From the NCBI RefSeq assembly GCF_041248615.1, contig NZ_CP158426.1: a DNA stretch of 64,000 nt; one strand, written 5' to 3'. The notes beneath the pieces are model-generated. The model made no database searches and was not told the DNA's origin. It worked only from the letters and a program-made list of their open reading frames with translations. The stretch is from Escherichia coli (lineage in GTDB: Bacteria > Pseudomonadota > Gammaproteobacteria > Enterobacterales > Enterobacteriaceae). A program made the translations under genes and the position numbers. The first letter of the stretch is position 1. Every line of letters begins with the position of its first letter. Below are positions 36,690 to 58,243 of this stretch, piece by piece.

Positions 36690-36941
<252 letters not shown>

Positions 36942-36945
36942 CTAA

Positions 36946-39303
<2,358 letters not shown>

Positions 39304-55246: not shown

Positions 55247-55345
55247 GCCGGATGCGGCGCGAACGCCTTATCCGGCCTACAAAAGTTTGCAAATTCAATA
55301 AATTGCAGAATTCATGTAGGCCTGATAAGCGAAGCGCATCCGGCA
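55247..55345. repeat. REP/BIME element: two inverted REP palindromic units
   Basis: gccggatgcggcgcgaacgccttatccggcctac and its inverted partner gtaggcctgataagcgaagcgcatccggca. Confidence 0.85.
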
Positions 55346-56543: not shown

Positions 56544-57446
56544 TTATGAAAGCATAGACCGTTTACCCTCCCTGGGTACGACGGAACAGGGGTCCTGATG
56601 GATAATCACATCCGATCCCGGAAAACGCCGTAAAATAGCCTGCTCTACCTGATCCGCCACCATATGTGCCTGAACCAAAGGCAGAGAGTCTTCCATTTCC
56701 AAATGAATCTGAATAAAGCGGGTCGGCCCTGACTGCCGCGTGCGAAGATCGTGAGCGCCGCTAACACCCGGCCAGGAAGTCACGATATCAATAATTTCTT
56801 GCCGTTCTTCATCAGGCAATGCGCGATCCAGTAATGACTGTACCGCCTCATATCCCATGCGTAACGCGCTATATAAAATATAGATGCCGATTCCCAATGC
56901 AAACAGAGCATCGGCGCGATGCCAGCCGTACCAGGACAACCCCAGCGCCAGCAGAATTGCGCCGTTCATCATAACATCAGACTGGTAATGTAGCATATCA
57001 GCCCGCACCGCCTGGCTTTGCGTCCGGCGCACCACCCACCGCTGAAACGAGACAAGGATAATCGTACAAATTAGCGCCACAATTGTCACGATTACCCCGA
57101 CGCCTGGATCTGTCATCGGTGTTGGAGATATCAGATGTTGAATACCCGTCAAAAAGAGGAATAGTGCCGAACCGGAGATAAACATACTTTGCGCCAGCGC
57201 CGCGAGGGACTCAGCTTTACCGTGACCAAACGAGTGATTATCGTCGGCAGGTTGCAGGGAATATCGCACCACCAGTAAATTCGTCAACGACGCGCCGATA
57301 TCCACCAGCGAATCCACCAGCGCGGCGAGAATACTCACCGACCCGGTATACCACCATGCAAAAATTTTAATCAGCAATAGCAGTGAAGCCATCGCCGTTG
57401 CAGCAATCGCCGCCCGACTGACCAGCCGTCCATAAGATTGATTCAT
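56544..57446 (-). CDS. fieF: Cation diffusion facilitator (Zn/Fe efflux) FieF/YiiP, 300 aa
   Basis: ORF 56544..57464 trimmed to [21 protein letters not shown]; CDF transmembrane domain plus cytoplasmic C-terminal domain. Confidence 0.93.
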
Positions 57447-57527
57447 AAATACTCCCGCTATCAACTGACGCTAGTATAACGGAAGCAAATCATCTGCAAT
57501 GCATTAAGCAGCAGGCAAATTGAGGAT

Positions 57528-57592
57528 AAAAAAACCCCCACATCATGTGGGGGAAGACAGGGATGGTGTCTATGGCAAGGAAAACAGGGTTT
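57528..57592 (-). ncRNA. cpxQ: CpxQ small RNA, processed from the cpxP 3' UTR
   Basis: Sequence directly 3' of the cpxP stop ends in a terminator hairpin cccccacatgatgtggggg plus U-run; matches the CpxQ region as I recall it. Ends approximate. Confidence 0.5.
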
Positions 57593-57593
57593 A

Positions 57594-58094
57594 CTACTGG
57601 GAACGTGAGTTGCTACTACTCAATAGCTTCAACGATGAACTTTTTTGCCATTGCGTCACGTCACGCAACTGCTCCATTCGTTGTTGATGTTTCTCATTTA
57701 AAACCGCTTGCTGCTCCGGCGTTAACAGGCGATACATTTGGTTGCGGACTTTTGCCATCTCAACCTGACGAGCAATTTGCTCATTCGCCATTTTTTCTGC
57801 CTGTGCGCGCACAGCGTTTTCATCAAAATTTTCTGCGGTGACAAGGCGATGCATTGTCTCCAGTTCGCTAACATTAACAGGAGGCTGTTCGTGCCGGGCC
57901 TGTTGCATAAGATCTCGCATCTGCTGACGCTGATGTTCGGTTAAACTTATGCCGTCGAACATATGGCTCTGCGTACTGCGCTGCGTAAGTTCTTCACCCG
58001 GATGCCAGTTATCGCCTGAACCGACTTCAGCAGCGTGGCTTAATGAACTGACTGCCAGCGTTGAGGCCATGACGGCAGCGGTAACTATGCGCAT
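57594..58094 (-). CDS. cpxP: Periplasmic stress adaptor/chaperone CpxP, 166 aa
   Basis: ORF 57594..58097; signal peptide plus paired LTxxQ motifs. Confidence 0.93.
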
Positions 58095-58172: not shown

Positions 58173-58187
58173 TGTAAAACAACGTAA
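58173..58187. promoter_or_regulatory. CpxR-P binding site in the divergent cpxP/cpxRA control region
   Basis: gtaaaacaacgtaaa fits the GTAAA-N5-GTAAA CpxR consensus. Confidence 0.7.
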
Positions 58188-58243
58188 AGTCATGGATTAG
58201 CGACGTCTGATGACGTAATTTCTGCCTCGGAGGTATTTAAACA

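Follow-up and report, generated by a model that had tools for sequence, protein, structure and literature searches.

CpxQ and other sRNAs released from mRNA 3' ends

CpxQ is a well-studied and already known small regulatory RNA (sRNA) derived from a 3' UTR, and in K-12 and Salmonella it is a type II (processing-derived) sRNA of the Cpx envelope stress response. It is described as an Hfq-dependent species of about 58-60 nt that RNase E releases from the cpxP 3' UTR (PMC4817254, PMC9438474, PMC6755755, PMC10250213), the E. coli form being 58 nt long (PMC6755755). RNase E together with Hfq releases CpxQ from the cpxP mRNA, and mutation of the cleavage site abolishes it (PMC9438474); the product, 5'-monophosphorylated and very stable, has a half-life of more than 16 min (PMC10250213). 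CpxQ represses nhaB, skp, agp, ydjN, fimA, and cfa (PMC4817254, PMC9438474). Further literature reports that it lowers the production of CpxP, promotes Rho-dependent termination in the cfa 5' UTR, and, according to recent work, represses fad genes through FadL. The 5' end of CpxQ serves as the seed for nhaB and cfa, and the pairing was tested genetically with the C11G change and the compensatory cfa G135C change (PMC6755755).

Several other sRNAs, namely SroC, SdhX, MicL-S, NarS, and MalH, follow the same plan, in which the end of an mRNA supplies a conserved seed, a terminator hairpin, and an Hfq-binding U-tail (PMC9438474). They differ from CpxQ in their parental genes, seeds, and regulons, and have no sequence relation to it. 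A closer counterpart is Hrs1 of Erwinia amylovora, a 74-nt Hfq-regulated sRNA located between cpxP and fieF (PMC4070566), which Zeng and Sundin (2014) listed as co-oriented with cpxP and fieF and as ending in a Rho-independent terminator (PMC4070566).

The cpxP-fieF locus and its identity with K-12 cpxQ

The DNA analysed here, called the window, is a 64-kb stretch of an Escherichia coli genome other than that of MG1655. Within it, positions 57528-57592 are almost certainly the cpxQ locus encoding the known CpxQ sRNA, as judged from the CpxR box, the identity with K-12, and the strong intrinsic terminator. The features of the locus are as follows.

58174..58188, no strand assigned: recognition box for CpxR, GTAAAACAACGTAAA, between cpxP and cpxR
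57594..58094, minus strand: cpxP coding sequence, 166 aa plus stop, in the parental mRNA (list of open reading frames and transfer of the K-12 annotation)
57585..57593, minus strand: spacer UAAACCCUG from the cpxP stop to the CpxQ 5' end, identical to K-12, where the K-12 cpxQ 5' end maps
57528..57584, minus strand: CpxQ sRNA, 57 nt, UUUUCCUUGCCAUAGACACCAUCCCUGUCUUCCCCCACAUGAUGUGGGGGUUUUUUU (alignment to K-12 b4716; covariance-model match of 86.9 bits)
57572..57584, minus strand: single-stranded 5' seed, CpxQ nt 1-13, UUUUCCUUGCCAU, identical to K-12
57555..57571, minus strand: small predicted stem-loop in which nt 14-18 pair with nt 26-30 (minimum free energy and centroid structures)
57535..57553, minus strand: Rho-independent terminator hairpin, 8 bp, loop UGA (terminator scan, alignment, and folding)
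57528..57534, minus strand: U7 tail, seen as a T-run (terminator scan)

The parental cpxP frame is intact. Its mechanical open reading frame extends from 58097 to 57594 on the minus strand, the equivalent of the K-12 start codon being at 58094, and a single substitution, at 57696, separates it from K-12 cpxP. The frame closes on tandem stops (window 57591-57596, minus strand), a TAG at 57596-57594 followed by an in-frame TAA at 57593-57591, in a stop region that varies across species. On the 3' side of cpxP and on the same minus strand, fieF starts with its ATG at 57446, 81 nt downstream, while cpxR and cpxA diverge from cpxP on the plus strand from 58244. Two plus-strand frames across the site, 57520-57687 and 57545-57841, are mechanical and antisense to cpxP. 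GTAAA-N5-GTAAA is the CpxR consensus, and its sole perfect match within the 64-kb window is the box at 58174-58188, which points to CpxR-controlled production through the cpxP promoter.

The K-12 record NC_000913.3 annotates the ncRNA cpxQ (b4716, "small regulatory RNA CpxQ") at 4106330-4106387, 58 nt in length and beginning 9 nt past the cpxP stop codon. The window RNA shares this position, 9 nt after the cpxP stop, on the same strand and before fieF, as well as the terminator stem and the upstream CpxR box. In the alignment to b4716, CpxQ nt 1-41 of the window equal K-12, seed included, and two differences were found: a C-to-A change in the terminator loop at 57543, and a T-run of seven rather than eight. 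K-12 CpxQ is thus a 58-nt RNA with the loop UGC-U and U8, and the window form a 57-nt RNA with the loop UGA-U and U7. Over 1.1 kb around the locus, five substitutions and one gap, in the T-run, distinguish the window from K-12. A covariance model built from orthologues, which gives one match per locus, found one match in the window, at 57527-57584 on the minus strand (86.9 bits, E = 5e-18). The context of the predicted RNase E processing site, CCCUG|UUUUCC between 57585 and 57584, is also identical to K-12.

The sequence-only reading had described 57528-57592 as the cpxP 3' UTR with a strong stem and a U-run, consistent with CpxQ. That interval is essentially the entire 3' UTR, the sRNA proper being 57584..57528 on the minus strand. 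The reading named no strand, and the stem that it quoted, CCCCCACATGATGTGGGGG, is the correct minus-strand sequence, namely the minus-strand reading of 57553..57535, with eight pairs, six of them G-C, and a 3-nt loop; its U-run is the T7 at 57534..57528, directly after the stem. The Rho-independent terminator and long U-tail characteristic of CpxQ are both present, as an 8-bp stem with six G-C pairs and T7. The alignment that the reading had proposed as a check bore out the CpxQ identity, b4716 being matched bar one loop substitution and one T, and the divergence of the seed that it had named as counting against CpxQ was not seen, with nt 1-41 identical to K-12. Its statement that the K-12 cpxP 3' UTR is processed to an Hfq-dependent CpxQ agrees with the published work (PMC4817254, PMC9438474, PMC6755755, PMC10250213).

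Fold, seed, and target pairing

In minus-strand orientation, the 3' UTR consists of UAAACCCUG, UUUUCCUUGCCAUAGACACCAUCCCUGUCUU, the hairpin CCCCCACA-UGA-UGUGGGGG, and UUUUUUU. In sRNAs, a hairpin with a U-tail forms the Hfq-binding 3' end, and by analogy with other sRNAs as a model, the hairpin and U7 tail of the window RNA are predicted to act in the same way. The 57-nt RNA folds with -17.4 kcal/mol (z = -2.9), and 2 of 200 shuffled sequences folded as well. Terminator-like motifs show no excess in the surrounding 2 kb, where two were counted against a shuffle mean of 2.1, so that a count of motifs says little at this site. Taken alone, the hairpin is only modestly unusual, and it is the identity with a known gene that decides the case.

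The seed contains C11, the genetically tested pairing base, at 57574. When nt 1-31 of the window CpxQ were paired with the K-12 cfa 5' UTR by RNAduplex, nt 4-11 paired with positions 78-85, an arrangement that reproduces the validated pair of C11 with the G at -135 and that only 1 of 300 shuffled seeds equalled. The seed is thus intact, C11 included, and the pairing with validated targets is recovered through the cfa site. Pairing with the full nhaB mRNA, also by RNAduplex, was no better than that of shuffled seeds (137 of 300) and so adds no support of its own. The 3' side of the small stem-loop holds a second invariant, pyrimidine-rich stretch, CCCUGUCUU, at nt 23-31 (57554-57562). A second complementary block for this stretch lies in the cfa 5' UTR at positions 37-45, about 40 nt upstream; in the K-12 sequence (L125) the two cfa blocks are at 338-346 and 379-386.

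Conservation across Enterobacterales

Species-representative genomes were scanned with the pattern TGTTTNCCTTGCCA-N9-12-CCCTGTC, which returned at least 120 loci. The pattern fixes 20 positions, so that conservation can be read only from the free ones, and it demands both conserved blocks, which makes the set blind to the frequency of CpxQ divergence and loss. Among the matches listed, 119 lie directly 3' of a cpxP homologue, wherever the upstream DNA sufficed, and come from Enterobacterales species; the identity of CpxP to the window protein ranges from 48 to 98% among them. The genera represented among the matches listed include Escherichia, Salmonella, Citrobacter, Enterobacter, Klebsiella, Raoultella, and Pantoea, together with Erwinia, Mixta, Yersinia, Dickeya, Brenneria, and Lonsdalea. 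One Nitrosomonas locus among the pattern matches was set aside as a chance match without the hairpin.

Across the 119 species among the matches listed, the first 31 nt of CpxQ are unvarying, 20 of these positions being fixed by the pattern. Of the free positions, nt 4 and the 10 nt of the spacer UAGACACCAU show no variation in 112 of the 119 matches listed; the remaining seven carry a deletion of one base. The CCC 5' of the processing site, which the pattern leaves unconstrained, is 97-100% conserved in 113 orthologous loci among the matches listed. In the ungapped flanks of the matches listed, the majority fraction falls to about 0.36-0.46. The CCCUG directly 5' of the CpxQ 5' end is kept across species among the matches listed, unlike the cpxP stop region.

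The terminator shows the opposite pattern. Its arm changes by genus (CCCCCACA, CCCCCUCA, CCCCCGCA, CCCCGCC, GCCCUCC, and others), and the 3' arm always matches, so that compensatory variants are visible by eye in the sequences themselves. MAFFT aligned the terminator of some genera out of register, and covariation was therefore counted on an alignment guided by the model; it comprises 99 loci (43 distinct rows) and is biased towards the structure. On that alignment, 91% of the cells of the terminator stem are paired and 39 cells, spread over several pairs of the stem, are changed on both sides, a number that none of 500 shuffles reached, and slid registers of the stem were all far worse. In the small stem (nt 14-18/26-30), all five pairs are invariant among the 43 distinct orthologues, and covariation therefore speaks neither for nor against it.

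These patterns bear on a simpler account of the site, namely that it holds nothing but the intrinsic terminator of cpxP, with the upstream 31 nt as a passive 3' UTR devoid of any role in trans. A terminator would be needed here in any event, with fieF on the same strand 81 nt downstream, and the hairpin by itself is statistically unexceptional. Against this, the 31 nt before the hairpin are frozen among the matches listed even where CpxP is about 50% identical, while the hairpin drifts compensatorily, and a frozen leader with a drifting hairpin is the reverse of what a plain terminator leads one to expect. Moreover, genetics and Northern blots in K-12, whose sequence is identical at nt 1-31, demonstrate regulation in trans (PMC10250213, PMC6755755). 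Removal of nt 1-31 with the terminator left in place has also reportedly altered target expression in K-12. A mere terminator is hence a very improbable reading, and the site is better regarded as cpxQ.

Alleles among E. coli genomes

All but one of the 5,426 complete E. coli genomes (5,425) gave a match to a 901-nt query spanning the site, nearly always with at least 99% identity. Alleles were counted as exact matches to a query of 69-72 nt in the 5,426 complete genomes, with the following outcome.

Loop A, T8: 4,109 of 5,426 genomes, the commonest allele
Loop C, T8: 896 of 5,426 genomes, the K-12 allele
Loop A, T7: 71 of 5,426 genomes, the window allele, also carried by E2348/69, UM146, and FORC_041

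Loop A is accordingly what most E. coli genomes carry, and the T7 tail is rare among them. Between species, the T-run measures eight in 104 of the 119 matches listed, seven in 7, nine in 7, and six in 1, and the U7 tail falls within this natural range. The loop C-to-A change and the U7 tail are both outside the pairing regions, and we infer that they bring no functional change and are neutral or nearly so; U7 could still have a slight effect on termination or Hfq binding. The T7 allele could be a true lineage marker or a homopolymer sequencing artefact. A short U-tail allele of this kind could be used to probe how U-tail length affects a processed sRNA.

Hrs1, Rfam, and the strand of the RNA

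Automatic annotation passes over the site. Rfam 15 holds no family called CpxQ, a scan of the whole window at gathering thresholds placed no family at the CpxQ site, and the RefSeq/PGAP annotation of the other E. coli genomes examined carries no feature at CpxQ. Elsewhere in the window, three Rfam matches were above threshold: the ES036/CssrF sRNA between sbp and pfkA (55282-55323, plus strand), the ClpQY (hslVU) promoter element (41573-41630, plus strand), and the L31 ribosomal protein leader (36909-36961, minus strand).

A permissive Rfam scan gave RF02628 (Hrs1) as the best match, on the plus strand at 57528-57599 with 42.4 bits and E = 4e-7. In the same search, RyhB, Esr41, NsiR1, and OmrA-B (E of 0.2-6) were rejected as chance resemblances of a hairpin plus U-tail. 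The RF02628 match scores 42.4 bits against a gathering score of 56.4, and it lies on the strand opposite cpxP. At Erwinia, Winslowiella, and Pantoea loci, RF02628 passes its threshold (61-69 bits), at the coordinates of the CpxQ model and again on the opposite strand. These antisense matches are located as follows.

L043: 1373-1446
L051: 3606-3679
L061: 6295-6368
L013: 360-430

Because the Rfam and CpxQ models match the same coordinates, the two names denote the same RNA: Hrs1 is CpxQ under an earlier name, given two years before CpxQ was named, and its Rfam model spans the whole CpxQ region and reaches another 16 nt into the 3' end of cpxP. The RF02628 consensus opens with AAAAAAA and then a hairpin, and to judge by this sequence, the family as distributed is the reverse complement of the RNA.

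Taken at face value, the orientation of the Hrs1 model would mean a functional plus-strand RNA that is antisense to the 3' end of cpxP, and RF02628 is indeed the best Rfam match of the region (plus strand, E = 4e-7), while the plus strand folds about equally well, its reverse-complement fold reaching -19.2 kcal/mol (z = -2.4). A similar fold energy is, however, expected of any reverse complement, and the Hrs1 match remains under its gathering score (42.4 versus 56.4). The plus strand has an A-run ahead of the hairpin but no T-run behind it, and hence no terminator; the paper defining Hrs1 puts the RNA on the cpxP/fieF strand with a Rho-independent terminator (PMC4070566); and K-12 work throughout detects a cpxP-sense RNA. 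A plus-strand RNA is thus scarcely conceivable, and the minus-strand CpxQ stands. Pipelines leave CpxQ unlabelled because RF02628 matches the opposite strand and its threshold is too high for the E. coli sequence to pass.

Proposed course of CpxQ production and action

The mechanism outlined here is carried over from experiments in K-12 and Salmonella to the window strain. Under envelope stress, active CpxA/CpxR would drive the transcription of cpxP, whose transcript would end in the hairpin plus U-tail at 57553-57528. RNase E, with Hfq in a guiding and protecting role, would then cleave between G57585 and U57584 to yield a stable 5'-monophosphate sRNA of about 57 nt. Through its 5' seed and the second C/U-rich stretch, this CpxQ would pair with the mRNAs of envelope proteins, its expected targets being nhaB, skp, agp, ydjN, fimA, and cfa, with fadL added from recent work. 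Repression would proceed by a block of translation initiation, by stimulation of RNase E decay, or by Rho-dependent termination.

CpxQ as a phage attachment site

Part of the CpxQ sequence is shared with P2-like phages, and the window holds the putative empty site:

57525..57570, minus strand: attB core for P2-like phages of the Wphi type, unoccupied, with CpxQ nt 15-57 followed by ATC (alignment to the Wphi attP)

In the int-ogr region of Wphi (AJ245959), the core begins at G15 of CpxQ, takes in the T-run, and ends with ATC. It measures 47 nt in Wphi, a length taken from the alignment made in this analysis, and 46 nt in the window; 46 of the 47 positions are present, and apart from the T7/T8 length the two are identical. 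The same 43-nt stretch occurs in about 55 Peduovirus records, downstream of ogr, and the carriers include Wphi, L-413C, other Yersinia phages, fiAA91-ss, FSL SP-004, R18C, and P24B2.

Occupied sites were found in other genomes. In about 830 of 5,425 E. coli genomes (about 15%), the intergenic match breaks directly after the T-run, and in O157:H7 AC-3 a P2-like prophage with integrase, C-type repressor, and Cox begins at the end of the T-run. The lysogen EC16, which carries a P2-like prophage, has a full CpxQ at attL adjoining cpxP (L127, 37460-37517) and a 5'-truncated CpxQ copy at attR between ogrK and fieF (L127, 17776-17827). Further copies of the att core were located at L004 249-299 and L002 2537-2600. 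The identity of the core, combined with prophages at this exact point elsewhere, points to an attB for Wphi-type peduoviruses in the window. The two EC16 copies have different loop bases, A at attL but the K-12 base C at attR; as a matter of speculation, the A/C polymorphism of the E. coli loop may have been exchanged through phage integration and excision.

The genome paper of E. coli W located prophage Wphi1 at "cpxP-fieF" and listed P2-like prophages at cyaR and rybB (PMC3032704). At att sites in tRNA, tmRNA, and sRNA genes, the 3' part of the gene serves as the core and the phage copy rebuilds the gene at attL, and CpxQ is alike in this respect. Unlike other sRNA att sites, the cpxQ site is named just "cpxP-fieF" in the open-access sources found. 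In the searched library, to which this negative result is confined, no literature linking CpxQ with a phage integration site was found.

Phage use could itself be invoked to explain the conservation of the sequence in place of sRNA function, given that CpxQ nt 15-57 plus ATC make up the core common to Wphi-type attP and that about 15% of E. coli genomes are broken directly after the T-run. Phages, however, adopt conserved host sequences and do not keep them conserved; the att core leaves out nt 1-14, where conservation is highest and function has been validated, and it includes a terminator stem that differs from genus to genus. We give this explanation next to no weight, and the roles of att site and sRNA are not mutually exclusive. 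The conservation of CpxQ is thus better ascribed to its function as an sRNA.

Another insertion was observed at the same point. In isolate AF40 (L003, about 1275-2060), an element with an IS200/IS605-family tnpA lies directly 3' of the T-run and before fieF, and the terminator hairpin may have been its target. In Enterobacter sp. Bisph1, Pseudescherichia vulneris, and others (L007, L015, L092, L095, L099, and L103), an ATCA..ACTTA-like sequence follows the T-run. These junctions look like that of the E. coli prophage, which suggests that genera other than Escherichia also carry P2-like prophages at cpxQ.

The phage copy amounts to the last three quarters of CpxQ, with the small stem-loop, the CCCUGUCUU stretch, the terminator, and the U-tail, and it is situated directly downstream of ogr on the same strand; in lysogens it comes to lie at attR, between ogrK and fieF. 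It is conceivable, if unlikely, that this copy acts both as the ogr terminator and as an Hfq-binding, 5'-truncated look-alike of CpxQ that tunes the envelope stress response of the host.

Significance

CpxQ is a textbook 3' UTR-derived sRNA that automatic annotation has overlooked, and RF02628 is the sole Rfam family covering it. The use of sRNA genes as att sites is a known principle, to which cpxQ adds at most a named example; in E. coli, cpxQ doubles as an integration site for a widespread group of P2-like phages. If the phage copy did act as a CpxQ look-alike, it would be one without the main seed, competing for Hfq or for the targets of the second stretch.
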